A DNA stretch of 64,000 nucleotides from an uncultured Syntrophaceae bacterium (GTDB taxonomy: Bacteria > Desulfobacterota > SM23-61). The position numbers were made by a program, and so were the translations under genes. The notes below the pieces were generated by a model. That model had not been told where the DNA came from and made no database searches. It was given only the letters and a program-made list of their open reading frames with translations. Below are positions 4,210 through 50,807 of this stretch, piece by piece (position 1 is the first letter of the stretch; each line of letters starts with the position of its first letter). The stretch is taken from assembly GCA_964484485.1 (NCBI GenBank), contig CAZAGD010000130.1, positions 339 to 64,338 on the forward strand, written 5' to 3'.

Positions 4210-4315
4210 CCCTACCCGCGGCTTTGAAAGAACTAATATCACTTGCTCCTGCCTGAGCTAAGAATTGATTCGTCAATCCTGCTTAGGGCCTAATTTAAAA
4301 GTGATCGACGGTCAG
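4210..4315. mobile_element. CTGACCGTC-family MITE-like element copy, end abutting a promoter
   Basis: Ends ttaaaagtgatcgacggtcag (4315). The reverse complement carries cttagctcaggcaggag and ttctttca..ggtagggg, shared with the 26485 and 28562 copies. TTGACA follows 12 bp later at 4328. Confidence 0.6.
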
Positions 4316-4384
4316 GGGGTTTTTACATTGACAATTGAAGAAAAATTCTTAAAAATATGGTTAATCAAAAATAAAGGGTTGGCA

Positions 4385-5446
4385 ATGAGAAAGAAAAATA
4401 TGCTTTTAAGAAACTCCAAGAAATTTAATCGTAGAGAATTTCTAAGAATTATGGCCGCCGCTGGAGTAGCCGGAGTAGCTTGGCCAAGTTTTTCCCAAAT
4501 TAAAGCTGAGGGAATTTCTAAATATCCCCATTGGGGTAAAGTGGTTCTCGTTAGAGATAATAAAGCTACGGAAGGATCCAATATCAATCAAGCAATAATT
4601 AAGAATATGCTCAGCGAAGCAATTAATGTTCTAACAGATGGTGGCGGATGGAACTCTCTTTTCCCTAATTTCCAAGTTGGTGAAACTGTGGCCATTAAGG
4701 TAAATTGCATTGCCCGCAGGATGAGCACGCATTGGGAAATTATTGAGGAAATAATCAATGGACTGATGGAAGTTGGGTTTCGTCCTAAGGATATCGTCGT
4801 TTATGATACTTTTGCTTCCTTAATAAAAGCTCCTAAATATGAACTTAAAACAGATCCTGAAAATTTACGGGTTATGGCCACTGATCAATTGAAAGATCCT
4901 TATGATCGAAACAAGCCTTTTGATATGGAGGGAAACCCGGCTTATCTCAGCCGAATTCTCACTGAGGCTACATATATAATAAACGCGCCCATTTTGAAAG
5001 AACATTTTGAAGCTGGCCTAACTTTTGCCCTAAAGAATCATGTGGGTTCGGTAGATAATGCTAAAAAGTTATTTCATGAAGACCCTGAGCCTGGGAATTT
5101 TATTCATGCTTTCTTAGGAAGAGGAAAGCCTAAGCAGAAACGTATTGCCCTTATTAACGCAGCTCCCGATATTAAAAATAAAACTAAGTTAATAGTAGGC
5201 GATGCCCTATTTGGAATTTATCAACGAGGGCCAGATGGTAGTCCGCAGTTTACCTATAATGGGTTGATTATCGGAACAGACCCAGTGGCCCTTGACCATC
5301 AGGCCAGAAAAATCATTAATGAAGAGAGAGCGAAGAGAGATATGCCACCTATAAAAGCTGAGCATATTGAGATAGCGGCTCAATTAGGCCTGGGAGCTTC
5401 AAGTGAAGAAATGAAAGTTGTTTCCTTTTATAAGAAAGGATCCTAA
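4385..5446 (+). CDS. Tat-exported DUF362 domain protein
   Basis: Twin-arginine signal NRREFL; VAIKVN, IINAPILKEH, TFALKNHVG, DPVALD motifs of DUF362. Start trimmed from the ORF-track 4265. Confidence 0.75.
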   Translation: MRKKNMLLRNSKKFNRREFLRIMAAAGVAGVAWPSFSQIKAEGISKYPHWGKVVLVRDNKATEGSNINQAIIKNMLSEAINVLTDGGGWNSLFPNFQVGETVAIKVNCIARRMSTHWEIIEEIINGLMEVGFRPKDIVVYDTFASLIKAPKYELKTDPENLRVMATDQLKDPYDRNKPFDMEGNPAYLSRILTEATYIINAPILKEHFEAGLTFALKNHVGSVDNAKKLFHEDPEPGNFIHAFLGRGKPKQKRIALINAAPDIKNKTKLIVGDALFGIYQRGPDGSPQFTYNGLIIGTDPVALDHQARKIINEERAKRDMPPIKAEHIEIAAQLGLGASSEEMKVVSFYKKGS

Positions 5447-5448
5447 GA

Positions 5449-5982
5449 ATGACCAGGTTTTTATGGGTTTTTGTTCTTTTTTTCTTAGCTTTCTCTTGCT
5501 CTCCGCAGATGGGATTGAAACCAGGTGAGGCATGGCGAGCAGCCAATTTTCTTCCTGACGATATTTCTGGCTGGAAAAAACTTGGGCCTCTCTCGGAGGC
5601 GAACAGTCATGAGGAACTCTTTAAGCGCATTAATGGGGGAGCAACCATATTTATAAAATATGGTTTGCAAAGTTATGCCGGTCAAATCTATCATAATCAA
5701 GATGGAGTGGAAGTTGAGATCGGCGTATTCCTTTTTGGTGAAAAAGAAAAAGCCCGCCAACTTTTCATTGACCCACTGATGAAACCTCGTTTAAGCAAGA
5801 AATTGGAAAATTTGGGAGAGGATGCCCGATTAGATGAAAGCGCCTTATTCTATAATATAATCGAATTCATCAAAGACCGCTTTTTTGTCAGAATAACAGT
5901 CCAGGACAAAAGTAATTCTTCGATCAAGATGGCCAGCGAATTTGCTCGCCATATTCTGCAGAAGATCAATAATCTGCCTTAA
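5449..5982 (+). CDS. Putative lipoprotein (DUF6599-like)
   Basis: Hydrophobic signal with AFSC lipobox; LFKRINGGATIFIKYG motif; 2 bp after the DUF362 gene. Confidence 0.6.
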   Translation: MTRFLWVFVLFFLAFSCSPQMGLKPGEAWRAANFLPDDISGWKKLGPLSEANSHEELFKRINGGATIFIKYGLQSYAGQIYHNQDGVEVEIGVFLFGEKEKARQLFIDPLMKPRLSKKLENLGEDARLDESALFYNIIEFIKDRFFVRITVQDKSNSSIKMASEFARHILQKINNLP

Positions 5983-6080
5983 CCCCTCCCGGGCCTCCCC
6001 TTAAAATATTTTTATCCGAGGCAAGTCCGGATTTATCAATCCCGGCTCGGGTTAAGACTTTAAAAGTGATGGACGGTCAG
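5980..6080. mobile_element. CTGACCGTC-family MITE-like element copy
   Basis: Ends tttaaaagtgatggacggtcag; internal tcaatcc shared with the 4210-4315 copy. Confidence 0.6.
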
Positions 6081-6092
6081 CTTTTTAATTTA

Positions 6093-6121
6093 TTGACTTG
6101 AAAAATATGTTCATCTATAAA
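6093..6121 (+). promoter_or_regulatory. sigma70 promoter of the tctCBA-ggt operon
   Basis: TTGACT-17 bp-TATAAA. Confidence 0.65.
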
Positions 6122-6160
6122 ATAAAGATAGGTAAATTTCAAAATTTAAGGGAGTAAATT

Positions 6161-7144
6161 ATGAAGAAAAGATCAAGAACTTTGCTAATCTGTTTAGTGA
6201 TGGGATTTTTCTGTCTGATGGGAACCGGAAATAATATTTCGGCTGGAGAATACCCAGAAAAACCCATCAAGCTCATAGTCCCTTGGGCTGCGGGTGGGGA
6301 TACGGATGTGCTTATGAGGATTATCGCTCACTACGCGGGAAAATACCTCGGCCAACCAATGGTTGTTGTAAACGTAGGCGGCGTAGGGGGAACCCTGGGG
6401 GCGCGTCAAGGAAAAGATGCTAAACCAGATGGATATACACTAACGGCGACCCATGAATCCGTAATTACTTCATATATAGTGGGAGTTGCGGAATTCAATT
6501 ACTCTCAATTTCAGCCTATTGCTAATATGATAGCCACTCCAGCTATTGTAGCCGCAAGACCCGATGCTCCTTGGAACAATATGAAAGACTTGATCGCCGA
6601 CGCCAAAAAGAAACCTGGAGAGATTAAATTTGGGGCAACGCTTGGTTCGACCAGTCATTTCTTTCCTTTGATGATTGCTCATGAAGCGGGCATAGAATTT
6701 AAAATTGTGGGGTACGAAGGTACGGCTGAGCGCCAGACCGCGCTTTTAGGGGGTTTTATTGATTTAGGGGAAAGTAATCCTGCTTCGGGGAAAAAATATT
6801 TCGAAGCCAAAAAACTAAAAGGATTAGGAATTGCTCGCGCCCAGCGGCATCCCCTGCTTCCCGATATGCCTACTCTAAAGGAACAGGGCTTAAATGTCAT
6901 ATTTGAAGTTAATCGGGGGATTTGTGCCCCCCTCAATACCCCCCAGGCTATTGTAGATAAATTAGCGGCTGCTTTTAAAAAGGCTGCCGAAGATCCAGAG
7001 TTGAAAGAAAAAATTAAAGAACATGGTACATTAGTTAATTTTTTACCGCCCGCTGAGTACAAAAAGCATATTGAAGAAGAAACCAAAAAATATACTATGT
7101 TGGCCAAGAAGTTCGGCTTGGAGGGTTTATTGAAGAAAAAGTAA
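6161..7144 (+). CDS. tctC: Tripartite tricarboxylate transporter substrate-binding protein (Bug/TctC)
   Basis: YPEKPIKLIVPWAAGGDTD, PDGYTL; signal peptide. Confidence 0.9.
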   Translation: MKKRSRTLLICLVMGFFCLMGTGNNISAGEYPEKPIKLIVPWAAGGDTDVLMRIIAHYAGKYLGQPMVVVNVGGVGGTLGARQGKDAKPDGYTLTATHESVITSYIVGVAEFNYSQFQPIANMIATPAIVAARPDAPWNNMKDLIADAKKKPGEIKFGATLGSTSHFFPLMIAHEAGIEFKIVGYEGTAERQTALLGGFIDLGESNPASGKKYFEAKKLKGLGIARAQRHPLLPDMPTLKEQGLNVIFEVNRGICAPLNTPQAIVDKLAAAFKKAAEDPELKEKIKEHGTLVNFLPPAEYKKHIEEETKKYTMLAKKFGLEGLLKKK

Positions 7145-7161
7145 GGAGGATCACACCGGGA

Positions 7162-7180
7162 GCAAGGGGTAATCCCTTGC
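7162..7180 (+). terminator. Intercistronic hairpin between tctC and tctB
   Basis: gcaaggg-gtaat-cccttgc stem, no U-tract. Confidence 0.4.
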
Positions 7181-7212
7181 CCAATAAATTTAAAGGATGG
7201 TGAGGAGCTAAT

Positions 7213-7683
7213 GTGAAGGCAGATAGATATATCGGCATAATTTTAATAATTTTTAGTGTTTTTATGTATACTCAAACTTTCAAATTTCCTCCGGCCATGC
7301 TGGGAACTTTAGGAGCAGGTTTTTTCCCCAAAATTCTTTTTACGCTTTTAGGTTTAGCTGGCCTTGGATTAGTAATAGGGAGCTTCATCCAAAAGAAAAA
7401 AAGACCATTGGAAAAGACCTTTTCTCTAAAAGTTGCTTTGCAAGCGCATTCTCTGGTGATTTTAAGTTTCGTTCTGGTTTTCATTTACATTGTAGCCATG
7501 CATTTTTTTGGGTTTTTATGGGCAACCCTTGGCTTTATGATTTCCTTGATGTGGCTCTTAAGCCCCAGGAAAATAAAAAGCCTTCCCCTAATAATAATCA
7601 TCTCTGGCGGGTTGACATTCGTTATTTACTATTCCTTTCTTAAATTACTGCAGATATTTTTACCGGAGGGCGTAGTTTTTTAA
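7213..7683 (+). CDS. tctB: TTT small membrane subunit TctB
   Basis: About 4 TM segments, GAGFFPK, terminal LPEG motif; lies between tctC and tctA. Confidence 0.85.
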   Translation: MKADRYIGIILIIFSVFMYTQTFKFPPAMLGTLGAGFFPKILFTLLGLAGLGLVIGSFIQKKKRPLEKTFSLKVALQAHSLVILSFVLVFIYIVAMHFFGFLWATLGFMISLMWLLSPRKIKSLPLIIIISGGLTFVIYYSFLKLLQIFLPEGVVF

Positions 7684-7702
7684 AATTTTATAGAGGGAGG
7701 AA

Positions 7703-9199
7703 ATGCTGGACTTAATTCTCTTAGGTTTAAAAGAAATTTTTCAACCCTATCCTTTAATTTTTCTCTTCTTCGGAACAATTGCCGGAATTGTGGTGGGTTG
7801 TATTCCGGGTTTTACGGTGACCATGGGTGCGGCTCTCCTTTTGCCGCTCACCTTCGGCATGAAATCTATAGAAGGATTAGCGGCTATGATTGGCGTATTA
7901 GTTGGGGGATTAGCCGGTGGCCAGATTTCGGGTATTCTTATTGGCATACCAGGAACACCCTCCTCAGTGGCCACGGTCTTTGATGGGTACCCCATGGCCA
8001 AGAAAGGGGAGGCTGGTAACGCTTTATGTTTGGGAGTTTGGGCATCTTTCTTTGGTGGGATAATAAGCGCTTTTTTCCTCCTTTTCTTTGCTCCTCCCTT
8101 GGCTAATATGGCTTTGAAGTTTGGACCATGGGAATTTTTCTCTTTGGTAGCTTTTGGTTTAACTATCATTGCCAGCCTTTCTGGAGAGTCGCTTTTGAAA
8201 GGGTTAATCTCTGGTCTTTTAGGTCTGATTGCAGCCACCGTCGGGGCCGATCCCATAACCGGAGTTTTGCGCTTCGATTTTGGTATTTATGGGTTGAGTG
8301 GCGGATTTTCTTTTTTACCTGTCCTTATAGGCCTCTTCGCTTTTTCAGAGTTGATGGGCAATTTGGAAAGAAAAGAAAGGTCTACAGAAAAGCTTATTTT
8401 GAATCCAAATCTAAACTTCTCATCCCCCAAAATGATCCGGATAATTTTCAGTCAGCCGGTTAATCTAATTCGTTCTTCTTTAATTGGTGCTTTTATTGGT
8501 GTTCTTCCTGGAGCGGGGGGAAGTATCTCGAATATTTTGAGTTACGATCAAGCGATGAAAGGGTCTAAATACCCCGAAAAATTTGGCACGGGAATTCCTG
8601 ATGGGGTTATTGCCTCTGAAGCAGCGAATAACGCTACCGGAGGCGGGGCTCTCATTCCGGCCATGGCCTTAGGAGTTCCTGGAGACGCTGTGACGGCCAT
8701 TATGCTGGGCGCCCTTATCCTCCATGGAATCCAACCTGGTCCTATGTTAATCGTTGAGTTCCCAGGGCTAGTTTACGGGGTGATCATGGCTTTTTTCTTA
8801 GCCCATTTCTTCATGGCTGGAGTACAGCTTTATGGCATCAGTCTTTTCGTACGCTTAACTCGTCTTCCCTTATATATATTGGTTCCCTCCATTGTGGTCT
8901 TCTGTGTCGTGGGGTCATTTGCCATTCACAATCGCTTCTTCGATATTTGGGTGCTTTTCATATTCGGAATTCTGGGGTATTTAATGAAAAAGTTTGGTTT
9001 CCCTTTAACCCCTTTAATCTTAGGTATAATATTGGGCCCCTTAGCTGAGAAGAATTTGCGCCGAGCATTACAAACAAGTAGTCACCTATCTCTATTTTTT
9101 ACCAGGCCAATTTCGCTGATTTTTTTGATCTTAGCTTTGATTTCCATTCTTTATCCTTTCTACCAGCGTTATAAAAAGGGAAAAGTGAAACAAAATTGA
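7703..9199 (+). CDS. tctA: TTT large membrane subunit TctA
   Basis: GIPGTPSS, DGYPMAKKG, EAANNA, GIILGPLAE motifs. Confidence 0.92.
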   Translation: MLDLILLGLKEIFQPYPLIFLFFGTIAGIVVGCIPGFTVTMGAALLLPLTFGMKSIEGLAAMIGVLVGGLAGGQISGILIGIPGTPSSVATVFDGYPMAKKGEAGNALCLGVWASFFGGIISAFFLLFFAPPLANMALKFGPWEFFSLVAFGLTIIASLSGESLLKGLISGLLGLIAATVGADPITGVLRFDFGIYGLSGGFSFLPVLIGLFAFSELMGNLERKERSTEKLILNPNLNFSSPKMIRIIFSQPVNLIRSSLIGAFIGVLPGAGGSISNILSYDQAMKGSKYPEKFGTGIPDGVIASEAANNATGGGALIPAMALGVPGDAVTAIMLGALILHGIQPGPMLIVEFPGLVYGVIMAFFLAHFFMAGVQLYGISLFVRLTRLPLYILVPSIVVFCVVGSFAIHNRFFDIWVLFIFGILGYLMKKFGFPLTPLILGIILGPLAEKNLRRALQTSSHLSLFFTRPISLIFLILALISILYPFYQRYKKGKVKQN

Positions 9200-9212
9200 A
9201 GGGAGATAATTC

Positions 9213-10820: not shown

Positions 10821-10824
10821 AGTT

Positions 10825-12036: not shown

Positions 12037-12120
12037 CTCATCTCCTTGTTTGGCAAAAGATAAATTCTAATTGATCAGATACCATATTTCCCAAATTTTG
12101 GCAACGAAAGGAGTGTCTTC

Positions 12121-12370
12121 CTGACTGTTTGTTCCCATCTGAGCCATGTTTTGATGTTTATTAAGAAACTGCTCGGCGGGCAGAGTAATGCCTCAATGAA
12201 GCGGGGGTAATATATAAGAATCTTATTTTCTCCTATTTACTCCTCCCGCTCCCTCTTAACTTAAGAGGGAGCGGGGAAGTTAAATCCTTACCTTATGAAT
12301 TATATTTAGTAAGCAATAAGCCTTTCCTTTTCGCCAGCGGAGAAAGGCGTGGTGTGGAATTACCAGTCAG
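12121..12370. mobile_element. About 250-bp MITE-like element with CTGACTG terminal inverted repeats between divergent promoters
   Basis: Left end ctgactgtttgttcc; right end reverse complement ctgactggtaattcc. Flanks agtgtcttc / agaatcttc match 7/9. Internal palindrome cccgctccctcttaacttaagagggagcggg. Confidence 0.5.
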
Positions 12371-12382
12371 AGAATCTTCATT

Positions 12383-12411
12383 TTGACTTTTATTATAGAT
12401 TAGCCTATACT
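12383..12411 (+). promoter_or_regulatory. sigma70 promoter of fba-fbp
   Basis: TTGACT-17 bp-TATACT. Confidence 0.7.
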
Positions 12412-12482
12412 GCTAAAAAAATAGTAAGAGGCAGATCGACGCAGAATTTTTGGATAAAAATAATCAGCAAGGGGGAATAAAT

Positions 12483-13496: not shown

Positions 13497-13522
13497 CTTC
13501 TCCAGCAGAAAAGGGAATGAAT

Positions 13523-14542: not shown

Positions 14543-14579
14543 ATTGAGTGATTTTTCATTATTCATTACATCAAAAATA

Positions 14580-14679: not shown

Positions 14680-14749
14680 AGATTTTCTCTTCATAAATAT
14701 CATAAAGAAGCACTTAGTTTAGGTTTAAATAATAGAGAAACGCGCTCGC

Positions 14750-16000: not shown

Positions 16001-16046
16001 TTTGCCACCGAGGACTAATCTTCCCCATCCCTTCTTTAAATTTAAT

Positions 16047-23377: not shown

Positions 23378-24691
23378 TTAGCCATAAACCAAATTGGGCA
23401 GCCACAAAACTATTTCTGGAAATAAAATACACAAAATAAGACCAGCGATTTGGAGAACCATAAAGGGAATAACTCCTCGATAAATATGCTTTAACTCTAC
23501 TTCTGGCGGAGAAACTCCTTTTAAATAAAAAATAGAATAAGCAAAAGGAGGGGATAAGTAAGATATTTGAAGGTTTACACACACAAGAATAGCAAACCAG
23601 ATTGGGTCAAAGCCAAATTTTTTGACAATAGGAGTTATGATAGGAATCATGATCAGGATAATAGCAATCCAGTCTACAAAACAGCCTAAAATAATAATTA
23701 TGACCATTACTAGAATTAGAAACCCATATGGTGACATTGCTGTACTCAACAAATAATTTTCTATAGCTGCGCCTCCGCCTAAGGCCAGAAAAACTCCGGT
23801 AAAGACATTTGCTCCCACAGTAATGATTAAGATCATCGCGGTTGTTTGTAGTGTTCGATAAACAACATCTTTTAGAGTTTCCCAAGATAATTTTTTATAG
23901 ATCAGGCATAGAATGGCCGCCCCTACCGCCCCAACTGCAGCGGCCTCAGTAGGAGCCGCGAAGCCAAACAATATGGAACCTAAAACAGCCAAAATAAGAA
24001 AAAGAGGGGGGAAAAGCGTTTTTAAAAGTAAAAGAAAAAGCTGCTTGCCGGAAATATGTCTTTGATCTTTGGGGAGAGCCGGACCCATATGGGGCCAGAA
24101 AAAACACATAGTTCCAATGTAGGCAATGTATAGACTTGAAAGGAGTAGCCCAGGAAGTATGGCCGCGGTGAAGAGGCGGGCAATGGAAAGTCCCGCCATA
24201 GGGCCATAAAGGATAAGCATTACACTGGGGGGGATAAGAATGCCTAAAGTACCTCCAGCAATGATACTGCCTGTAGCCAGCGGAATGTCGTATCCTCGCT
24301 TAAGCATAATGGGTAAAGCTAAGAGACCCATCATAGTCACGGAAGTACCCACAATCCCCGTCGTCGCAGCCAAAATAGTGCAAAGAAGAACGGTTACTAC
24401 GGCTAGGGCCCCTCTCATAGGTCCTAAAGCTAATTGTAAGGAATGAAATAATCCTTCGGCTATACCTGATCGGTCCATCAAATATCCCATAAAAATAAAT
24501 AAAGAAACAGCTACCAGAGCATCATTCATCATGATCCCGAAAGTTCGGGCTACCATCTGATCGAATACAGCAGTTCCCCACCCAATATATCCAAAAATAA
24601 AACCTGAACCTAAGAGCACATAGGCTAATGGAAATCCACTAAAAATACCAAAGAGTAGAAACAAAAACATCCAAAGGGCAATGTATTCCAT
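23378..24691 (-). CDS. dctM: TRAP transporter large permease
   Basis: GGTLGILIPPS, TEAAAVG, SPPFAYS; about 12 TM segments. Confidence 0.9.
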   Translation of the reverse strand: MEYIALWMFLFLLFGIFSGFPLAYVLLGSGFIFGYIGWGTAVFDQMVARTFGIMMNDALVAVSLFIFMGYLMDRSGIAEGLFHSLQLALGPMRGALAVVTVLLCTILAATTGIVGTSVTMMGLLALPIMLKRGYDIPLATGSIIAGGTLGILIPPSVMLILYGPMAGLSIARLFTAAILPGLLLSSLYIAYIGTMCFFWPHMGPALPKDQRHISGKQLFLLLLKTLFPPLFLILAVLGSILFGFAAPTEAAAVGAVGAAILCLIYKKLSWETLKDVVYRTLQTTAMILIITVGANVFTGVFLALGGGAAIENYLLSTAMSPYGFLILVMVIIIILGCFVDWIAIILIMIPIITPIVKKFGFDPIWFAILVCVNLQISYLSPPFAYSIFYLKGVSPPEVELKHIYRGVIPFMVLQIAGLILCILFPEIVLWLPNLVYG

Positions 24692-24698
24692 AATTATT

Positions 24699-25217
24699 CT
24701 ATGTCTTCCTCCTCACGGTTTGGACTGTCTTTATAAATTCTGCAATTCCCTGGAGCAGGAGTATAAAAGTAGCTACTGGTAGGATGGTCTTGAAGGGGTA
24801 AATAGGAACTCTCCACATGGTCACCCCAGATTTCTCTAAAATAGACCAAGAATAAATAGATTGTTGGAGCCCAGCCCAAAAAAGGACGATGAGGGCAGGA
24901 AAGAAGAAAATGGGGTATAAAAATAGGTCGATCATAGCTTGAGTTCGTGGCGAAAAACTTTTATAAAAGACGTCAATTCTCACGTCTCCTTTGCGGTAGA
25001 GGGTAAAAGCAACTCCCATCATAAAATGGGCGCCGTAAAGCATATAACTTAAATCCCAGGCCCAAATTGTTGGGGAATTAAAAACATACCGAACAATCAC
25101 TTCATAAAATATAGATAAAGTAAGGACTACAATTAGCCAGGCAAAGGCCTTAGCAGACCAAACACTCAAATTATCAGCAAATTTTATAAAAGAGGACAAT
25201 TTTCTGCTCCTTGACAA
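24699..25217 (-). CDS. dctQ: TRAP transporter small permease
   Basis: 4 TM segments, RYVFNSPT, DVRIDV; TTG start. Confidence 0.85.
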   Translation of the reverse strand: MSRSRKLSSFIKFADNLSVWSAKAFAWLIVVLTLSIFYEVIVRYVFNSPTIWAWDLSYMLYGAHFMMGVAFTLYRKGDVRIDVFYKSFSPRTQAMIDLFLYPIFFFPALIVLFWAGLQQSIYSWSILEKSGVTMWRVPIYPFKTILPVATFILLLQGIAEFIKTVQTVRRKT

Positions 25218-25262
25218 AGGAATCCCTCTGCTGAGTAGACTCTAGACAGAGGGATTCCTTTG
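25215..25262 (-). promoter_or_regulatory. Perfect 16-bp stem between dctP and dctQ covering the dctQ RBS and start codon
   Basis: caaaggaatccctctg (25215-25230) pairs with cagagggattcctttg (25247-25262). Confidence 0.6.
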
Positions 25263-25278
25263 GAATTAAGTTAATTGA

Positions 25279-26388
25279 CTATTTTTTGGGCCAATAATAA
25301 TTTGCTGGAATTTCATAAGGGGCATAAAAGCTCCGGCGGAATTCCACCATTTTTTTGGCCCATTCCTTCTGCGAGGCATAAACTTTAGCGAAAACAGGAT
25401 CTTTAGCTACATACCTTTCAGCCACTTTATCCCAGGCTTTCAGGATTTCAACAAGAACTTCTTTGGGAGTTTCCACCAAATTTACTTTGTGTTTAGTCTT
25501 TAAAACTTCCAGGTCTTTGACATTTCGAGCAGTAAGGTCTAACCAGGATCTTAGAAGGTTTTCTCTGGCTGCTATTTCCACAATAGCCTTTAGATCGGCA
25601 GGCAAAGCATCCCAGGCATCTTTATTGACCAAGAATTCGAGGGTTCCTGTATGGCGATGCATGCCTGGAGCATGGTAGTATTTAGCTACATCCATTAAGC
25701 CCAACTCCTTATCCATGGTTGGATCCATCCATTCTGCCCCATCGATGATCCCTTTATCAATGGCCGAAACAATTTCTCCACCAGGCAGAGTTATTACGGA
25801 CATTCCAAATTCTTTATAAATCTCAGCAGTAATGCCAGCTGCCCGAAATTTTTTGCCTTTCAAATCAGCTACTGATTTCATAGGTTTTTTAAACCAGCCT
25901 AATGGTTCAGAAGCAATAATGTCGGTAGGGATGACATAAACTTTCATTTTTAATACATCGGTATAAATCTGTCGGTAAAGTTCCAGGCCTCCCCCATAAA
26001 AGAGCCATCCGACATAATCAATATTATCCATACCGAATGGACCACCAGCCACACTGGAAAAAAGATTTAAAGCTGGTTGTTTACCGATCCAATAGGCCGA
26101 CCAGCTATGAGCTGCCTGGAGGGTGCCCCGGTGGATGGCATCCAGGACCTCAAAGGCAGGTACGATGGTACCGGCAGGGGAAACATCAATTTTTATCCTC
26201 CCTCCGGACATTTCCGTAATCCGCTTAGCCAGACCAACGGCACTTTCATGGAGAAATACTCCTGCTGGCCAGGTAGACTGCATTTTCCAAGTAAAGGAAG
26301 CAGCCTGGGCAATTCTGTTCAGCCCATCTAATCCCAAACCTGCAAAAGCCAGAATCCAAATTAATCCCCAAACTGTAAATTTCTTCAT
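25279..26388 (-). CDS. dctP: TRAP substrate-binding protein (TakP/alpha-keto acid-binding subtype)
   Basis: WKMQSTW, MSGGRI, FEVLDA, GKKFR, PGGEI, IDGAEW. Confidence 0.88.
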   Translation of the reverse strand: MKKFTVWGLIWILAFAGLGLDGLNRIAQAASFTWKMQSTWPAGVFLHESAVGLAKRITEMSGGRIKIDVSPAGTIVPAFEVLDAIHRGTLQAAHSWSAYWIGKQPALNLFSSVAGGPFGMDNIDYVGWLFYGGGLELYRQIYTDVLKMKVYVIPTDIIASEPLGWFKKPMKSVADLKGKKFRAAGITAEIYKEFGMSVITLPGGEIVSAIDKGIIDGAEWMDPTMDKELGLMDVAKYYHAPGMHRHTGTLEFLVNKDAWDALPADLKAIVEIAARENLLRSWLDLTARNVKDLEVLKTKHKVNLVETPKEVLVEILKAWDKVAERYVAKDPVFAKVYASQKEWAKKMVEFRRSFYAPYEIPANYYWPKK

Positions 26389-26443
26389 CTTTCCCTCCTT
26401 TTAGTTTTTTTGCCGCTTTTTGGTTATAAAAATATAGATTAAA

Positions 26444-26472
26444 AAAATATTTTATTAAGGAAATTTTGTCAA
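26444..26472 (-). promoter_or_regulatory. sigma70 promoter of dctPQM-aor
   Basis: TTGACA-17 bp-TATTTT. Confidence 0.6.
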
Positions 26473-26484
26473 GCCAAAAATCTT

Positions 26485-26620
26485 CTGACCGTCGATCAGT
26501 TTTTAAATTCCAGCTTAATTCAGGCGGGCGGGAGAGAGGCTCATTAAAATGAGCCCCATATTCTTTCATAGGTAGGGGTTTTTCCGGGATCTCGAGATCT
26601 CTTAAAAGGGTTAAAGTCAA
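26485..26620. mobile_element. CTGACCGTC-family MITE-like element copy
   Basis: Starts ctgaccgtcgatcagtttttaaattccagcttaattcaggcggg, nearly identical to the reverse complement of 44774-44814. Internal hairpin ggctcatt-aa-aatgagcc; degenerate far end ttaaaagggttaaagtcaa. Confidence 0.7.
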
Positions 26621-26825
26621 TTTTTATTTCGATTTTTGCTTCCTGACGAATTAAACGTGGTTTCGTTGTTTTCTGGCCTTCTTCATGCTTTTCCAGTTAG
26701 TACGACCCAGTCTTTACTTGGGGAGAGTCGGAGGACACACGATTACATGGATAATGGGGAGGTGCTTAGATAAATGTCATTTATTTAATGCCCCATTAAT
26801 AAAAAATAAATAAATTAAATTTTTG

Positions 26826-27221: not shown

Positions 27222-27224
27222 TCA

Positions 27225-28520: not shown

Positions 28521-28549
28521 AGATTATCATTTCAAAAACAAGGAGTCAA
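28521..28549 (-). promoter_or_regulatory. sigma70 promoter of serS, probably giving a leaderless mRNA
   Basis: TTGACT-17 bp-TAATCT with an extended TG; the ATG is 6 nt after the -10 box; no SD. Confidence 0.6.
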
Positions 28550-28561
28550 TAATGGAAGTAT

Positions 28562-28670
28562 CTGATCGCTGATCACTTTTTAATTTTCGACTTAATTCAG
28601 GCGGGAGGGGAGAGACTCATTTAAATGAGGCGCTGCTTCCTTCATAGGTACGGGCGGGGAAGGTTAACCC
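28562..28670. mobile_element. CTGACCGTC-family MITE-like element copy
   Basis: ctgatcgctgatcactttttaattttcgacttaattcaggcgggagggggagagactcatttaaatgag...ttcataggta, colinear with the 26485 copy. Confidence 0.7.
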
Positions 28671-28695
28671 TTTTGGGGCAAAGGAAAGAGATGCA

Positions 28696-29750: not shown

Positions 29751-29864
29751 TTGAACCTTGATCATTTTTGAAATTTCTGCCTAATTCAGGCGGAAGGAAG
29801 AGAGTCTTTCATCCTTCCGTCTTTTCCCTGTTGGTAAGAAATAATAAAACTGTTAGACGGTCAG
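29751..29864. mobile_element. Full-length about 114-bp CTGACCGTC-family MITE
   Basis: Colinear with the reverse complement of 44700-44814; ends ttgaaccttgatca and tagacggtcag. Confidence 0.7.
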
Positions 29865-29876
29865 TTTTTTTCGTCA

Positions 29877-29905
29877 TTGTTTTATCAAAAATTTTATGTT
29901 ATATA
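29877..29905 (+). promoter_or_regulatory. Putative sigma70 promoter of the second peptide ABC cluster
   Basis: TTGTTT-17 bp-TATATA with an extended TG. Confidence 0.5.
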
Positions 29906-39079: not shown

Positions 39080-39082
39080 AGT

Positions 39083-42842: not shown

Positions 42843-42844
42843 AA

Positions 42845-43480: not shown

Positions 43481-43493
43481 ATTTCAATTTTAA

Positions 43494-43522
43494 ATTATAG
43501 GGGAAAAACTAACTTTTTACAA
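43494..43522 (-). promoter_or_regulatory. sigma70 promoter of the tmk operon
   Basis: TTGTAA-17 bp-TATAAT; degenerate element end ttgaccctc 12 bp upstream (43535-43543). Confidence 0.65.
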
Positions 43523-43598
43523 ATTACTTTTTCTTTGACCCTCTAAAAGTTTTAATGATTATCGCCTTCCTAAATATTAGATCAAAGGAGTGCAAAAT

Positions 43599-43627
43599 AA
43601 AAAAGCCGGAGAAAATCTTTCTCCGGC
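43599..43627 (-). terminator. Intrinsic terminator after the second tctC
   Basis: gccggagaaa / tttctccggc stem followed by a U-tract on the minus strand. Confidence 0.75.
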
Positions 43628-43659
43628 CTAAAATACTCGAAAGCAATGGGTTTTGGCCA

Positions 43660-44622: not shown

Positions 44623-44658
44623 CGATTTTTTTCCTCCCTTTTTAAATTTTTCTTGCCT

Positions 44659-44687
44659 AAAATAGCAGTATCTTTTTTGTATGTCAA
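44659..44687 (-). promoter_or_regulatory. Internal sigma70 promoter for the second tctC
   Basis: TTGACA-17 bp-TATTTT with an extended TG. Confidence 0.6.
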
Positions 44688-44699
44688 TAATTTTGGCGG

Positions 44700-44814
44700 C
44701 GGACCGTCGATCAGTTTTAATATTTCTCGCTAGCAGCAAACAGGCGGGAGGGGGAGAGACTCTCTCCCCCTCCCGCCTGAATTAAGCTGGAATTTAAAAA
44801 GTTTTGACGCTCAG
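44700..44814. mobile_element. Full-length 115-bp CTGACCGTC-family MITE with a central hairpin
   Basis: Ends cggaccgtcgatcagttttaa and ttaaaaagttttgacgctcag; central caggcgggagggggaga / tctccccctcccgcctg stem. Confidence 0.75.
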
Positions 44815-44834
44815 CTTTTGGATTTGATCATTGG

Positions 44835-46349: not shown

Positions 46350-46365
46350 AGCTATCTTCCCCCCT

Positions 46366-46827
46366 TTAAAACCCCAAAACTCCGCGGGGGAGTTGGCTCT
46401 CCAGACCTATTTTAAATACTAAATAGAATAAACCCGTAGTAATCAAGGAAGCGAAAATTACTTGGCCGATGGGTCTGGGTTCCATTAAGCGGAAAAGGAA
46501 AAGCAACAGAAGAATAGTACCGAAAATAAAACCTAAAGTTGAAAATAAGATTACATAAACAAAAAGGATGGCGATCGTTTGCCATAGCTTAGGCCAGTTT
46601 ATATTGGCCCAGATCTCCCGGTCTAATCGTTCATCTTTCCATTGGTTAATAAGACCTCGGAGAAGGTCTATCAGCGCTAATGCCCCTAAAACTAAGGCGC
46701 TGAGGAAAGGCATAAAGCCAGCATGAGGTTGCTGCCAGGAGCCTAAGCCAAGTTTTATACTTCCAGCACAAACAGAGACAGCCAAGCCTATCCAGAATAG
46801 ATCATTAATGAGGAAGGTTTTCTTCAA
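46366..46827 (-). CDS. tctB: TTT small subunit TctB
   Basis: PHAGFMP, terminal LPRG, about 4 TM segments; adjacent to tctA. Confidence 0.85.
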   Translation of the reverse strand: MKKTFLINDLFWIGLAVSVCAGSIKLGLGSWQQPHAGFMPFLSALVLGALALIDLLRGLINQWKDERLDREIWANINWPKLWQTIAILFVYVILFSTLGFIFGTILLLLFLFRLMEPRPIGQVIFASLITTGLFYLVFKIGLESQLPRGVLGF

Positions 46828-46848
46828 GATTTCCTCCTTGGTTATTGG

Positions 46849-47952
46849 TTATTTTAAATGAGGATCCAATACTACTTTAATGGGGTCTTCCCCTTTAATT
46901 TCTCCGGCTACTAAAGCGATAGCTTTTTCAGCTTCGCTAAGAGGAAGACGGTGGGTAATTAGATCAGCAAAGGGATAAGTTCTTTGGCGCGCTAATTGAA
47001 TAGCTGCTTTAACCGCGCGAAAATCGTGGGAGAGTACTCCGTAAACGCTTATTTCACGCATAACTATTTGATCTAAATTTAGGGCGGCTTTTTGTCCTTT
47101 ATAAAGACCGGGCATGACCACAATCCCTTTTTTGCCAGCAAGGGAAATCGCTAAATCTGCGCCAGCAGGATTACCCGAAACGTCCATTACAACCTTAGCC
47201 ATTCTTCCGTTGGTGAGTTCTTGAACTACCTTCTGAGGATCCTCTTGGTCAATATTTATGACATGATCTGCCCCAAAGCGTTGGGCTATTTGGAGCCGAT
47301 TTTTATCGCGGGACAGGCCCAAGAGGATGATCGGATAAGCTCCAGCTTCCTTAGCTATAGCTACACCGGCAATTCCTTGTTGTCCTGGACCAATTATTAC
47401 TACCGGATCGGCAAAAGAAACCCCGCCCACCTGCCTTAGCCAGCGCACAGCATTTCCTAAAACGGCGCAGATAAGCACTCCTACTTCGGGAGATATATCC
47501 TCCCCAATTTTGTGCACCATGGCCCGCGGATGGAGGTATACATATTCACTGTATCCCCCAAAGAGGTGCGGTGGATGCTTACAAGAAATCATTGAACCAT
47601 AAGCATAACTTTCTTCGCAGAGATTATAATTTCCGGAAAGACAATACAGACACTTTCCGCAACCAAAAGAATACTCGATTACCGCCCGATCTCCTTCCCT
47701 AACTCCCCATCTTTTTTGGGCCTCTTCCCCAACGGCTGCTATGCGTCCCACTATTTCATGGCCCAATATTAGGGGGTAAGGTCGGGGGCCTCGCGTGGTT
47801 TTGCCGGCGAAGATTCCTGGATCTGAACCACATACCCCCACCAACTCCACTTGCAGGAGACCATCTTCTTCACCTATTTGGGGCAGATCGAATAATTGGA
47901 GGCTCATTGTCCGGGGAGCGGTAAGTACCATGGCGCGACATTTATTTTTCAT
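46849..47952 (-). CDS. Zinc-binding (MDR) alcohol/polyol dehydrogenase
   Basis: GVCGSD, LGHE, CGKCLYC..C structural zinc site, GPGQQG. Confidence 0.88.
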   Translation of the reverse strand: MKNKCRAMVLTAPRTMSLQLFDLPQIGEEDGLLQVELVGVCGSDPGIFAGKTTRGPRPYPLILGHEIVGRIAAVGEEAQKRWGVREGDRAVIEYSFGCGKCLYCLSGNYNLCEESYAYGSMISCKHPPHLFGGYSEYVYLHPRAMVHKIGEDISPEVGVLICAVLGNAVRWLRQVGGVSFADPVVIIGPGQQGIAGVAIAKEAGAYPIILLGLSRDKNRLQIAQRFGADHVINIDQEDPQKVVQELTNGRMAKVVMDVSGNPAGADLAISLAGKKGIVVMPGLYKGQKAALNLDQIVMREISVYGVLSHDFRAVKAAIQLARQRTYPFADLITHRLPLSEAEKAIALVAGEIKGEDPIKVVLDPHLK

Positions 47953-47985
47953 CTTTTCTCCCTATACGATAGATTTAGGAATAGA

Positions 47986-48014
47986 AGTATAAATAAAAGA
48001 TGAAAAAAAAGCAA
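47986..48014 (-). promoter_or_regulatory. sigma70 promoter of the Zn-ADH-tctBA operon
   Basis: TTGCTT-17 bp-TATACT; element end ctgaccgtcggttaa 12 bp upstream (48027). Confidence 0.65.
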
Positions 48015-48087
48015 TTAGGAGAAATTCTGACCGTCGGTTAATTTGGGAATTTGCCCTTAATTCATCTAATAGATGAAGAAAAATCTT

Positions 48088-48200
48088 TCATTCCTGTGAA
48101 AACATGAAGCAGGCATGAAGCAGGCATGAAGCAGGCATGAAGCAGGCAGGAATGCAGGATCTTAATTTTTTTCTGGATTCCGGCCGGCGCGGGATTGATG
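48088..48200. repeat. TCATTCC/GGAATCCAG palindromic repeat pair with 4x CATGAAGCAGG inserted at 48103-48146
   Basis: tcattcctgtgaaaa[catgaagcagg x4]caggaatgcag, followed by ctggattccggccggcgcgggattga. Confidence 0.85.
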
Positions 48201-48312
48201 GAATTGGCTGCCGAGGGAGCTTTTTCAGAGATCCCCCAAATTAAACTTGACAAAAGAGAAAATTGTTATATTTCTTAAAGCTATAGAAATAAGCTTAATG
48301 AAGGAGAAAAAA

Positions 48313-49509
48313 ATGTCATTGCTAAATACACCATTTTTAATTGGGCAAAAGACTGCTCCTAATCGGTTCGTAAATCAACCAATGGAGTGTAATGATGCTG
48401 ATGAGCAAGGTAATCCTACTGACCTTACTTTTGAACGGTACCGAAAATTGGCTGAAGGAGGAGCGGGAATAATTTTTGTGGAGGCCTTAACCATTACGGA
48501 AGAGAGTCGCGCGCGTAAGAATCAATTGGGAATTTATGAGCGTACGGCTAAGAGTTTAGAAAAATTAGTTAGAGAAATGAAAGGCCTCAACCAACAATCA
48601 TTAATTTTATTCCAAATTACGCACTCCGGGAGGCAGAGTGCCGCTGGTTTTTCTCGCTTAGTTACAGTATATCCAACTGCTGATCTAAAGGCTCATGTAT
48701 TAACTGAAGAAGAGGTAGAAAAGATAGGCAATGACTTTGCTCATGCTGCCTTAATTGCCCAACAGGTAGGAGCTGATGGGCTCGATTTTAAACACTGTCA
48801 TGGCTACTTATGTGCGGAGATGCTCCGACCAGCCAATACACGCCAAGATCGTTTTGGGGGAAGTTTTGAAAACCGGGTACGCTTTTTTAAAGAGACAGCC
48901 CAGAAAATTAAAGACAAAGTGGGCAAGTCTTCTTTTCTCTGCGGAGTTCGTTTTTCAGTTTACGAAGGGATTCCCGGAGGGTTTGGGACATCTGGCCCGG
49001 AAGAAGTGATCGAAGATTTAGCCGAGCCCATAGCTTTCGCCCAAATTGTGGAGGAAGCAGGTTTTGATTATATAAATGTATCCGCAGGGATTCCGGCTAT
49101 TACTCCAGAAATCGTGAGGCCAACTAAGAATTATCCCGAGGGTGTTTACCGGCACTTTGGCTGGGCCAAAGTAATCAAAAGTAGGGTGCGCATCCCCATC
49201 ATCGGATCAGGGTACAGTTATCTCCGAGATGGAAATAACAATTTAAAAGACCCTGATCCGGAAAAGCGCAGCTTACTTTATTGGGCGGAGAAAAATTTAC
49301 GGCAAGGAATCTGCGATTTCGTAGGCTTAGGTCGCCAATCTTTAGCTGATCCTCTTTTTGCCCAGAAAATTTTAACCGGCAGGAATTCAGAAATTAATTA
49401 TTGCCGGGCTTGTGGAGGATGTTCTGCTCTTCTTGGGTCCCAACTGCCTACGGGCTGTGTAATTTATTCCGAATTTTATAAAAAAATCTTCAAGGAAAAA
49501 TCTTATTAA
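48313..49509 (+). CDS. NADH:flavin oxidoreductase (Old Yellow Enzyme family) with C-terminal Fe-S motif
   Basis: NRFVNQPME, GGAGIIFVE, QITHSGR, HCHGYL, GGSFENR, GRQSLADP, CRACGGC..C; AGGAG RBS before ATG 48313. Confidence 0.85.
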   Translation: MSLLNTPFLIGQKTAPNRFVNQPMECNDADEQGNPTDLTFERYRKLAEGGAGIIFVEALTITEESRARKNQLGIYERTAKSLEKLVREMKGLNQQSLILFQITHSGRQSAAGFSRLVTVYPTADLKAHVLTEEEVEKIGNDFAHAALIAQQVGADGLDFKHCHGYLCAEMLRPANTRQDRFGGSFENRVRFFKETAQKIKDKVGKSSFLCGVRFSVYEGIPGGFGTSGPEEVIEDLAEPIAFAQIVEEAGFDYINVSAGIPAITPEIVRPTKNYPEGVYRHFGWAKVIKSRVRIPIIGSGYSYLRDGNNNLKDPDPEKRSLLYWAEKNLRQGICDFVGLGRQSLADPLFAQKILTGRNSEINYCRACGGCSALLGSQLPTGCVIYSEFYKKIFKEKSY

Positions 49510-50729
49510 AGACGGCAGAGTTTCCCTGCCCACATGGCCTCGAAGAGTGCCCGGCATTCCGCGGAAGACATGGGCCGCGGATTATTGGGCCGCGGATATT
49601 TGGTTAAGCATATTTCCGCCATTTGCGGCACGTCTTCATGCCGGAACCCCATTTCCTTTAAGCTTACCGGCAGCTTTACATCAGCCGTCAAATCATACAC
49701 AAGTTCTGCCGCTTTTTGAGCAGCTTCCCTGGTAGAAAGGCCTTCTACCTTTGCCCCCATAGCGCGGGCAATAAGAGCCAGTTTATCTTCAATCACGGGC
49801 AAGTTGAAAACCATGGTATAAGGAAGCCCAACTCCGCAACCGATACCATGAGGTACAGGCTGAAACATGGCTAATACATAAGAAATACTATGGGCATATA
49901 ATCCCCCCGTGCCCGTAAAAGAAATCATAGAGAGAGTAGCTCCCATGGACATATAATACCGCGCTTCTAAATCTTGACCGTTAAATGTAGCCCGGCGCAG
50001 ATATTTAGCGATTAACTCGATGCCGCCTATGCCCAAACAATCATAGAAAGGATTAGCTAATTTATTCATCAAGCTTTCCACGGCATGAGAAAGAGCATCT
50101 ATGCCCGTGGAGGCGGTTATATTTGGCGGTAAAGAAATAGTTAGCCCTGGGTCTATAATAGCTATTTCGGCATAAGCGTAGGGAGAACCCATGAAATATT
50201 TATCTTTCCCTACCGAGCATACAAAAAACATAGAAACTTCACTTCCTGTGCCGGAAGTAGTGGGGATTAGAATCTTCTTCAAGGCCGGCTTTTCCACAAC
50301 TTTTTTGGTCATCAATTCTAAAGGAGGCTGCGGGTTGGTTGCGACAATAGAAGTAAGCTTGGCCATATCCATGGCGCTCCCTCCACCTAGACCGATCACT
50401 AAGTCCGGTTTTTCTTGCCGGGCCATTTCATAAAGCGCATCGGCGGTCTCCATGTGTGGTTCGGGATCTACACGGTCAAAGACGGCGGTCTTGATCATTT
50501 CTTTTTCTAACTTATCTTTCACAAAACCTGCATAACCCAATTTAACCATATTTTCATCGGTAACTAAGAGAGCTTTTTGGGCGCCTAATTTTTTAGCTTG
50601 TTCGCCCACTTTGGAAATCGTATTAAAACCAAATAAAATTCCGTAAGGCGGAAGAATACCGGCTGTTTGGAAAGTAAATTCCCGCTTTAAGTGGCTCGGA
50701 ATTTCATAATCAAATTTAAATTCACTCAT
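49506..50729 (-). CDS. Iron-containing alcohol dehydrogenase family protein
   Basis: GGGSAMD, PTTSGTGSE, DALSHAVES, PHG, NNPR. Confidence 0.9.
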   Translation of the reverse strand: MSEFKFDYEIPSHLKREFTFQTAGILPPYGILFGFNTISKVGEQAKKLGAQKALLVTDENMVKLGYAGFVKDKLEKEMIKTAVFDRVDPEPHMETADALYEMARQEKPDLVIGLGGGSAMDMAKLTSIVATNPQPPLELMTKKVVEKPALKKILIPTTSGTGSEVSMFFVCSVGKDKYFMGSPYAYAEIAIIDPGLTISLPPNITASTGIDALSHAVESLMNKLANPFYDCLGIGGIELIAKYLRRATFNGQDLEARYYMSMGATLSMISFTGTGGLYAHSISYVLAMFQPVPHGIGCGVGLPYTMVFNLPVIEDKLALIARAMGAKVEGLSTREAAQKAAELVYDLTADVKLPVSLKEMGFRHEDVPQMAEICLTKYPRPNNPRPMSSAECRALFEAMWAGKLCRL

Positions 50730-50756
50730 GGAAATCCCCCTTTCTTATTTTTTAGT

Positions 50757-50807
50757 AAGATATAATTTTTAGGAAACTAAAGTCAAGAAGATTTACTATT
50801 GACCGTC
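50757..50807 (-). promoter_or_regulatory. Promoter of the Fe-ADH gene with an upstream element end
   Basis: TTGACT-18 bp-TATCTT; ttgaccgtc at 50799-50807, 12 bp from the -35 box. Confidence 0.55.

Follow-up and report, generated by a model that had tools for sequence, protein, structure and literature searches.

Miniature inverted-repeat elements lying 12 bp upstream of -35 boxes in an uncultured Syntrophaceae bacterium, and a Tn5-like insertion sequence with DUF6788 as their probable partner

Insertion of mobile elements at a fixed distance upstream of bacterial -35 boxes has so far been described, as far as the main text of the relevant study goes, for one superfamily, the Mutator-like transposases found in the TnGBS, ISLre2 and ISKra4 elements (Guerillot et al., 2014; PMC3942029). 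The TnGBS integrative and conjugative elements and the ISLre2 family use p-MULT 3 Mutator-like DDE transposases and, according to the same text, insert in one orientation with a distance peak of 16 bp (range 15-17) from the right inverted repeat to the -35 box, and the ISKra4 group (p-MULT 4) inserts upstream of promoters in both orientations (PMC3942029). The mechanism was left open there in 2014, and the word 'MITE' does not occur in that main text (PMC3942029). Here we describe a family of MITEs (miniature inverted-repeat transposable elements) from the genome of an uncultured Syntrophaceae bacterium, which came to light in a stretch of 64,000 nucleotides (referred to below as the window) and whose ends lie 12 bp upstream of -35 boxes throughout that genome. 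These MITEs are very probably cut-down, non-coding passengers of a 1.6-kb insertion sequence (IS) that encodes a DUF6788 protein together with a Tn5-like transposase and that itself inserts 12 bp upstream of -35 boxes. Like TnGBS and ISLre2, the family keeps a fixed distance from -35 boxes of the sigma-A/sigma-70 type, makes direct repeats in the 8-9-bp range and has inverted repeats starting with C; unlike them, as they are described in that main text, it uses 12 bp rather than 16, both orientations rather than one, and a Tn5-like rather than a Mutator-like enzyme (PMC3942029).

The source genome (G000) comprises 3.63 Mb in 253 contigs, the window being positions 339-64338 of contig C130, and all genomes compared here are metagenome-assembled genomes (MAGs). 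The first-pass annotation of the window had drawn attention to a 9-mer, GACGGTCAG, that is followed by 12 nucleotides of variable sequence and a TTG at a set of unrelated promoters. This 9-mer is present five times in the window, against 0.08 copies expected from shuffles, and N12-TTG follows it in all five cases, as had been claimed. Genome-wide there are 141 exact copies, nearly all within a common longer context: read toward the gene, the conserved end exceeds 9 nt and runs about AAAA(C/G)TGATCGACGGTCAG, and the terminal inverted repeat of the family is about CTGACCGTCGATCAGTTTT. Among the 137 exact ends with enough flank, TTG begins at +12 in 65 and TTGAC in 45, with no other offset exceeding 6 for TTG or 5 for TTGAC, and the 438 one-mismatch 9-mers yield 56 further cases of TTGAC at +12.

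A 25-nt end matrix was built genome-wide from the exact 9-mer matches. At a threshold of at least 8 bits and with at least 40 nt of flank it recovers 341 ends, of which 150 have TTGA beginning at +12. Counts at the remaining offsets between 0 and 35 do not exceed 11 (+11, 11; +9 and +16, 8 each; +13 and +17, 5 each; +15, 4), so that the genome-wide 12-bp peak which the annotation had set as its own test is found, and is very sharp. With a stricter end pattern the in-phase counts are 49/111 in the source genome, 95/203 in a sister species of the same genus (G001), 8/15 in G282, 4/8 in G010 and 3/7 in G012.

The ends belong to elements. When outward-facing ends 60-600 bp apart are paired, 76 copies are obtained which carry a common terminus of 19-25 nt beginning with C, as in CTGACC. 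One end is in phase in 65 of these copies, both ends in five and neither in six, and thus 70/76 have at least one in-phase end. The copies are small, multi-copy and, to judge from their sizes, non-coding, and they fall into classes of about 115, 168, 244, 294 and 333 bp (pairs at 106-120, 153-183, 242-259 and 285-296 bp, plus the 333-bp form). Consensus sequences of four classes have both termini in common and differ by nested internal deletions, with a mean column identity of 0.79-0.89 within a class; for the 115-bp consensus a single long hairpin of -65 kcal/mol is predicted. About 170 elements are present in the 3.6-Mb genome. Near-identical 333-bp copies break its assembly, which suggests recent activity, and a 'type C' end at contig edges that was considered as a possible IS proved to be this 333-bp MITE.

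The copies are flanked by a 9-bp target duplication, which is perfect in 27/75 pairs and has at most one mismatch in 52/75. Mean flank identity reaches 0.80 when 9 bp are compared and falls to 0.48 with 8 bp and 0.41 with 10 bp; position by position it stays at 0.72-0.85 over exactly nine positions and is about 0.2 beyond. Where copies adjoin each other the gap is 9 bp in 21 end observations and 8 bp in two, as repeated insertion into one 9-bp target would produce. Two dissimilar subterminal types face promoters about equally (50/88 and 36/70), and therefore no orientation preference is seen. These features bear on the alternative that the dyad TGAyCG-n-CGGTCA is the operator of a global regulator, sitting near -55 and maintained by selection, not transposed. 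The terminal 15 bp do form an imperfect palindrome, and it occupies one fixed position at about 100 promoters, as an operator might; however, an operator has no reason to be flanked by 9-bp direct duplications, nor to form the tip of elements of 110-335 bp with a second identical end that points away from promoters.

The DNA next to the in-phase ends has the form of canonical promoters. In the 306 ends with at least 12 bits and at least 70 nt of flank, TTG is found at +12 in 159, and the profile of these reads TTGACA at +12 to +17 (A 0.86, C 0.77 and A 0.59 after the fixed TTG), with a TA...T signal at +35 to +40. A TAnnnT box at a spacer of 16, 17 or 18 bp is present in 18, 61 and 23 in-phase ends respectively (102/159), compared with 20/147 of the other ends. 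Of the in-phase ends, 150/159 point to a gene's 5' end, at a median of 83.5 bp; for the 147 ends not in phase the neighbouring gene presents its 5' end in 78 cases and its 3' end in 56. In-phase flanks are thus predicted to be canonical promoters directed at gene starts (TTGACA and TAnnnT with a spacer of 17 bp), and the view in the first-pass annotation that spacer and promoter are host DNA, with the element at a fixed distance upstream of the host -35 box, agrees with these profiles.

The sister species, whose orthologous stretches are 84-92% identical to those of the source genome, contains more elements (278 vs 191 matches to the 19-mer with at most two mismatches). Its contigs mostly break inside repeats, and the comparison of orthologous sites covers three sites. 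The second tctC promoter (window 44700) has one copy in the source genome; in the sister species it has a tandem pair, and the 9-bp target occurs three times beside the same TGTCAA. At the tmk promoter (window 43535) a fragment of about 37 bp is present in the source genome and none in the sister species, and pairwise alignment finds the promoter in both. At the iron-containing alcohol dehydrogenase (Fe-ADH) site (50799) the sister species retains the promoter and the 12 nt, with other sequence beyond; at the zinc-containing alcohol dehydrogenase (Zn-ADH) site (48027) its contig breaks. The DUF362 promoter (4316-4356) is also present there, with a different MITE subfamily upstream. Differences in presence and copy number at 44700 and 43535 are what the comparison with a relative had been proposed to reveal, and variation of this kind between species at one promoter is likewise difficult to reconcile with an operator.

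Two further differences between the species were seen nearby. In the sister species (C147, approximately 2200-3670; L050) the interval orthologous to window 4152-4418 holds an additional opposite-strand open reading frame (ORF) of 315 amino acids (aa) and a 320-bp MITE of another subfamily between two genes that are 266 bp apart in the source genome. At C55, approximately 4800-4947 (L068), orthologous to window position ~43638, it has a 146-bp insertion that is absent from the source genome and has inverted ends TTAATGAGAGCA...TGCTCTCATTAA; this appears to be an unrelated second MITE family.

An autonomous partner was sought with a degenerate end pattern over 401 genomes of the phylum sample. 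The pattern was found in 12 of them, and the reversed pattern, as a control, gave three single matches in the 401. In G104, a genome from another family, outward-facing ends lie 1602 bp apart on C10 and delimit an IS (L107:1013-2614) with the ends CTGACCGTCTATCAC... and ...GTGATAGACGGTCAG. It is flanked by a perfect 9-bp duplication, the other flank being taken from a second contig, and the TGTCAA found 12 bp beyond its left end precedes two ORFs. The IS itself carries two ORFs, of which ORF1 (109 aa) is DUF6788 (Pfam E=6e-13) and ORF2 (378 aa) is the transposase. A second 1.6-kb copy of the IS is present in the sister species (C203, 54-1668); its right repeat is identical to a common MITE end, and its left repeat differs from it at one base in 19. 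It also contains a DUF6788 ORF, and its transposase shares 70-72% identity with that of G104. TTGAC(A/T) stands at +12 in both of its flanks, the right one apparently before a tRNA-like sequence. G282 has the IS in multiple copies, at which its assembly breaks, and TTGAC(A/T) is at +12 in 6/9 of the ends retrieved. MAGs in a species-representative collection that are labelled Candidatus Aminicenantes have the same 19-nt end with TTGAC(A/T) at +12 (L148-L150), and one IS copy, with its ends at L150 and L154, has the same 9-bp duplication at both. Metagenomes contain at least 528 relatives of the transposase. Most of these lie on contigs of 1.5-2 kb, and hardly any has a name; one is called 'MAG: transposase [Thermodesulfobacteriota bacterium]'. 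A locus labelled Eubacteriales (L152) encodes a DUF6788 relative, and no element end was found there.

The search for a transposase flanked by the same ends, which had been suggested from the window alone, thus led to the IS copies in G104 and the sister species. Together with the inverted-repeat ends, the 9-bp duplication and the insertion polymorphism, these full-length copies bear out the idea of a non-autonomous transposable element family. An operator does not explain ends that also bound a transposase-encoding IS, and on this ground, as well as the duplications, the long shared interiors and the copy-number differences, we reject it as the origin of the motif and regard it as very improbable.

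The partner transposase is best filed as a Tn5-like, divergent IS4-family DDE enzyme. In Foldseek, the first five matches to the AlphaFold model of ORF2 (predicted local distance difference test, pLDDT, 86.9; predicted template modelling score, pTM, 0.89) are all Tn5 transposase (E about 1e-8, probability 1.00, query TM-score, TMq, 0.54-0.57); sequence-only searches of ORF2 against the PDB gave no match. In an alignment of 28 homologues D96, D161, E264, R260 and K271 never vary, and Y257 hardly does. The spacing of Y257, R260, E264 and K271 in that alignment fits Y-(2)-R-(3)-E-(6)-K, which we take to be the IS4-family signature. Some homologues of ORF2 carry a precomputed PF01609 assignment. 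The Mutator-like partner of TnGBS/ISLre2 type that the first-pass annotation had favoured therefore gives way to a Tn5-like IS4-family transposase with a DUF6788 ORF, and profiles for ISLre2 (NF033529), IS256 (PF00872) and ISKra4 (NF033572) had no match in the source genome or the sister species.

Other candidates for the partner were set aside. The DDE_Tnp_1 genes of the source genome (C82, C94, C97 and C150) lie in ISs whose ends are unrelated, ordinary genes fill the space between paired ends 1.3-6 kb apart in that genome, and no transposase adjoins its unpaired ends. ISKra4-type transposases occur in 27/401 genomes, and MITE ends were found in 0/28 of the loci examined. The IS on C82 (approximately 140-1585; L001), with a 439-aa DDE_Tnp_1 transposase, ends CCTGAATCCTGCGTGAAAA and TTAA on both sides, sits inside one of the promoter-targeting MITEs, just past the terminal repeat of that copy. 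At two ISKra4-type loci, L021 (G245:C39) and L030 (G267:C157), the gene is preceded by an ORF of 300-330 aa that matches Pfam DruA (Druantia; E=6e-53 and 6e-57) in place of DUF6788.

IS10 and IS50 make 9-bp target duplications and have ends beginning CTGA, as does the present family, and their target consensus is weak, symmetric and contained within the 9 bp. The new IS is like IS10 and IS50/Tn5 in its predicted Tn5 fold, its DDE triad and its Y-R-E-K spacing. It is unlike them in relying on a strict hexamer outside the duplicated 9 bp, on one side, and in having the extra DUF6788 ORF upstream of the transposase, and unlike the IS4 family at large in that its NCBIfam score stays below the family cut-off. 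With the ISKra4 elements it has in common the use of both orientations, near-symmetric inverted repeats and an occurrence in non-Firmicute phyla, as far as these are set out in the main text of the 2014 study (PMC3942029). Several ISKra4-type transposases in relatives of the source genome are also preceded by or fused to DUF6788. The ISKra4 elements differ in their transposase superfamily (UPF0236/NF033572) and in their ends (GGGTSTGCGACAAA in G010), and a partial ISKra4 copy in G012 lies 16 bp, not 12, from TTGTCA. The MITEs themselves recall bacterial MITEs and repetitive extragenic palindromic (REP)-like repeats such as Correia, ERIC and RUP, being small, non-coding, hairpin-forming, high in copy number and intergenic. 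The family therefore behaves like TnGBS, ISLre2 and ISKra4 but lies outside that group by its superfamily, its distance (12 bp vs 15-17) and its separate DUF6788 ORF. In the literature searched, to which ISfinder and the supplementary tables of PMC3942029 did not belong, we found no report of a bacterial MITE or Tn5-like family in fixed single-base phase with a -35 box. What is new is the target specificity, together with the scale of the MITE expansion, in a divergent Tn5-like IS.

Several points weigh against this reading of MITEs moved by the IS. No copy of the transposase or DUF6788 gene is present in the source genome, and mobilisation in trans is accordingly argued from the sister species; since the smallest contigs of the source genome are 2.5 kb, a 1.6-kb repeat assembled alone would have been lost. 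In the copy on C203 of the sister species a short tandem duplication introduces a stop into the transposase. MITE interiors have only the terminal ~19 bp in common with the IS, and any descent of the MITEs from it by deletion is therefore putative. ORF2 scores 119.5 bits (E=1.6e-34) against the NCBIfam IS4 family transposase NF033591 (IS4_2), whose cut-off is 152, and 18.9 bits against Pfam DDE_Tnp_1 (PF01609), whose cut-off is 23. A divergent IS copy (L151) has no TTG at +12 at either end. Genes were called with a crude longest-ORF scheme, and the promoters are predictions from sequence. Finally, occupancy is higher where a -10-like box accompanies the hexamer, as detailed below.

The source genome has 389 intergenic TTGAC(A/T) hexamers facing a gene start 20-300 bp off, and 101 of these (26%) have an element end at exactly 12 bp. 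Occupancy depends strongly on the hexamer: 71/241 for TTGACA (29%) and 30/148 for TTGACT, compared with 4/63 for TTGACG, 2/88 for TTGACC, 5/255 for TTGAAA, 1/109 for TTGCCA and 1/107 for TTGATA. Twelve one-mismatch hexamers have no end at all, namely TTTACA (97 instances), TTAACA (92), TTGGCA (87), TTGAGA (79), TTGTCA (63), TAGACA (57), ATGACA (43), TGGACA (40) and four rarer ones. Free and occupied promoters alike have A-rich positions -9 to -7 and a C at -1, and therefore no further target motif is visible. This stringency favours a direct read-out of TTGAC(A/T) as DNA by a complex of transposase and DUF6788, which would act without RNA polymerase.

The obvious competitor is that the same elements locate their target through contact with the RNA polymerase holoenzyme, or sigma region 4, at promoters. 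Hexamers with TAnnnT at a spacer of 16-18 are occupied in 64/188 cases and those without in 37/201 (odds ratio 2.3, Fisher p=5e-4), or, put the other way round, a -10-like box accompanies 64/101 occupied and 124/288 free hexamers. That 150/159 in-phase ends face gene starts, and that free and occupied promoters have the same A-rich stretch and C with no extra motif, would also be expected if the polymerase were the guide. However, some of the twelve unoccupied one-mismatch variants should be working -35 boxes, and a mechanism that follows the polymerase should therefore reach some of them, whereas 71/241 TTGACA hexamers are occupied and these variants are not; in addition, the 37/201 occupied consensus hexamers have no recognisable -10 box. 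Polymerase guidance thus seems unlikely, and the enrichment of -10 boxes possibly reflects DNA context or a contribution from the polymerase.

A different proposal is that insertion was only loosely targeted to A/T-rich intergenic DNA and that selection made the phase later. The 9-bp targets are indeed A/T-rich, and insertions within genes would be purged, but selection of this kind explains neither the single-base precision (150 ends at +12 vs 11 at +11 and 5 at +13) nor the absence from one-mismatch hexamers. The same phase is also seen in full-length copies of the IS from other lineages, among them MAGs carrying the label of another phylum, and we consider this proposal extremely improbable.

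The 9-mer forms the outermost part of the terminal inverted repeat in these MITEs, which the 1.6-kb IS very probably moves. According to the favoured mechanism of direct read-out, the transposition complex would make a 9-bp staggered cut with its near edge 3 bp upstream of TTGAC(A/T), and with the 9-bp duplication this edge would place the element end 12 bp from the -35 box. Given the usual promoter geometry, the cut would span roughly -47 to -39 relative to the start site. Insertion would leave the core promoter intact and push away all DNA further upstream, so that sequence upstream of about -48 would have been displaced at more than 100 promoters; the promoter site may be preferred as a harmless landing place. 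Either end of the element could face the promoter, and repeated insertion at one promoter would give tandem copies split by the 9-bp target. If the transpososome had two-fold symmetry and each half could read the hexamer 12 bp from its own end, both the absence of an orientation bias and the five copies flanked by hexamers on either side would be explained. CTGACC, the hexamer at the element's terminus, resembles the target hexamer TTGACA/T, with agreement at 4/6 positions.

It may also be asked whether, on top of targeting, many elements have been domesticated, the end or hairpin serving the promoter as an insulator, as a terminator against read-through or as an upstream element. The stable hairpin of the 115-bp consensus and the share of gene-facing consensus hexamers that carry a copy (26%) would suit such a role. 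Proximal and distal ends are equally kept, though (159 in phase vs 147 not), and both orientations are about equally used, which makes domestication distinctly unlikely.

DUF6788, the other protein of the IS, has no mention in the literature searched. The model of the 109-aa protein (pLDDT 91.8) consists of a helix, three strands and a 40-residue helix, and has no Foldseek match in the PDB at E<=0.001. The gene is present in 34/401 genomes of the phylum sample. At 30 loci the ORF downstream of it is of ISKra4 type in eight, Tn5-like in two, of another DDE_Tnp_1 type in three (L159, L165, L173), of IS66 type in one (L162) and a large serine recombinase in two (L155, L157), these last three kinds lying directly downstream of DUF6788; one further locus has a weak, sub-threshold match to DDE_Tnp_1_4 (PF13701). 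The other 13/30 have no family or BLAST match, no scanned ORF or too little downstream sequence. Fused forms also exist, two being named 'ISKra4 family transposase' and one having both PF20586 and UPF0236. DUF6788 therefore looks like a general accessory module of mobile elements, found beside four or more unrelated kinds of recombinase.

As the ISKra4 group is the other lineage that inserts upstream of promoters, the shared DUF6788 module is an attractive candidate for the target selector. We tentatively entertain the idea, without expecting it to hold, that DUF6788 is a portable selector that reads the consensus -35 box in the manner of sigma region 4 and passes the site to its partner recombinase. 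If so, it would explain promoter targeting in two unrelated DDE superfamilies (Tn5-like and ISKra4-type Mutator-like) and would predict the same targeting for the IS66-type, other DDE_Tnp_1-type and large-serine-recombinase elements with DUF6788. Against it, the main text of the 2014 study assigns the specificity to a signature within the transposase that lies between domains N1 and N2 (PMC3942029), and it weighs against the idea that DUF6788 also travels with recombinases for which no target preference is known. Among other DUF6788-bearing elements, the copies in G012 are remnants, L024 has no clear inverted repeats, and those in G305 and G239 have left boundaries without a visible hexamer or boundaries that were outside reach. 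Tn5-like enzymes are the type of bacterial transposase that is best understood and easiest to reconstitute; that promoter targeting is found here with such an enzyme, with a single small accessory ORF and with a different geometry (12 vs 16 bp), makes promoter finding by transposons directly testable in vitro. Insertion 12 bp upstream of consensus promoters would also make such a transposase useful for tagging or insulating.

Within the window, the end matrix finds 11 ends. Nine of the ten sites listed in the first-pass annotation have at least 12 bits and TTG at +12 (4307+, 6072+, 26485-, 28562-, 29856+, 43535-, 44700-, 48027- and 50799-), and are given with their promoters in Table 1. The tenth, ACCAGTCAG at 12362..12370 (+) upstream of fba, is not a member of the family, having neither a matrix match of at least 8 bits nor BLAST similarity to the paired copies. 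Similarity running inward from the ends had also been reported, and BLAST finds 32-123 bp of it, to copies elsewhere in the genome, at seven of the nine valid sites; at 48027- and 50799- the terminal motif stands alone, with no BLAST similarity further inward. Three 'partner ends' had been described as out of phase, of which 44806 marks the end of the 115-bp copy that lies away from the promoter, 29751 marks that of the 114-bp copy, and 12121 is outside the family. The names given to the ten downstream genes agree with Pfam (DUF362, TctC, class II aldolase, DctP, SerS, ATP-binding cassette (ABC) permease, thymidylate kinase, TctC, Zn-ADH and Fe-ADH).

Table 1. Element ends and neighbouring predicted host promoters in the window (bits, end-matrix score; BLAST, length of similarity inward from the end)
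Feature	Position	Strand	Details
MITE remnant	4242..4315	+	outer end GACGGTCAG at 4307-4315 facing DUF362 gene; 35.6 bits; BLAST 74 bp
Host promoter, DUF362	4316..4356	+	9-bp target copy + 3 bp 4316-4327; -35 TTGACA 4328-4333; weak -10 AAAAAT 4351-4356
MITE remnant	6031..6080	+	outer end 6072-6080 facing tctC; 31.3 bits; BLAST 50 bp
Host promoter, tctC	6081..6121	+	12-nt spacer; -35 TTGACT 6093-6098; -10 TATAAA 6116-6121
MITE remnant	26485..26578	-	outer end 26485-26493 facing dctP; 42.3 bits; BLAST 94 bp, best match 98% identical
Host promoter, dctP	26444..26484	-	12-nt spacer; -35 TTGACA 26467-26472; -10 TATTTT 26444-26449
Degenerate MITE	28562..28684	-	outer end AGCGATCAG 28562-28570 facing serS; 13.1 bits; BLAST 123 bp to 294-bp class
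Host promoter, serS	28521..28561	-	-35 TTGACT 28544-28549; -10 TAATCT 28521-28526
114-bp MITE	29751..29864	+	outer end 29856-29864 facing ABC permease gene; distal end near 29751; 36.7 bits; BLAST 114 bp to 114-bp class
Host promoter, ABC permease	29865..29905	+	-35 TTGTTT 29877-29882; -10 TATATA 29900-29905
Terminal MITE fragment, ~37 bp	43535..43573	-	end GAGGGTCAA facing tmk; 13.2 bits; BLAST 32 bp
Host promoter, tmk	43494..43534	-	-35 TTGTAA 43517-43522; -10 TATAAT 43494-43499; conserved in sister species
115-bp MITE	44700..44814	-	proximal end GACGGTCCG 44700-44708 facing second tctC; distal end decayed (10.8 bits at 44814); 34.5 bits; BLAST 115 bp
Host promoter, second tctC	44659..44699	-	9-bp target copy + 3 bp; -35 TTGACA 44682-44687; -10 TATTTT 44659-44664
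Terminal motif alone, exact GACGGTCAG	48027..48051	-	facing Zn-ADH gene; 20.9 bits; -35 TTGCTT 48009-48014; -10 TATACT 47986-47991
Terminal motif alone, GACGGTCAA	50799..50823	-	facing Fe-ADH gene; 13.1 bits; -35 TTGACT 50781-50786; -10-like ATATCT 50758-50763

Two further observations concern the window. The dctP and tripartite ATP-independent periplasmic (TRAP) transporter stretch at 24000-26800 has no match in the sister species at E<=1e-30, and both neighbouring stretches do match. Just inward of the 48027 motif, upstream of the Zn-ADH promoter site, an 11-nt unit (catgcctgctt) is repeated in tandem in at least four copies at ~48060-48110 (-).

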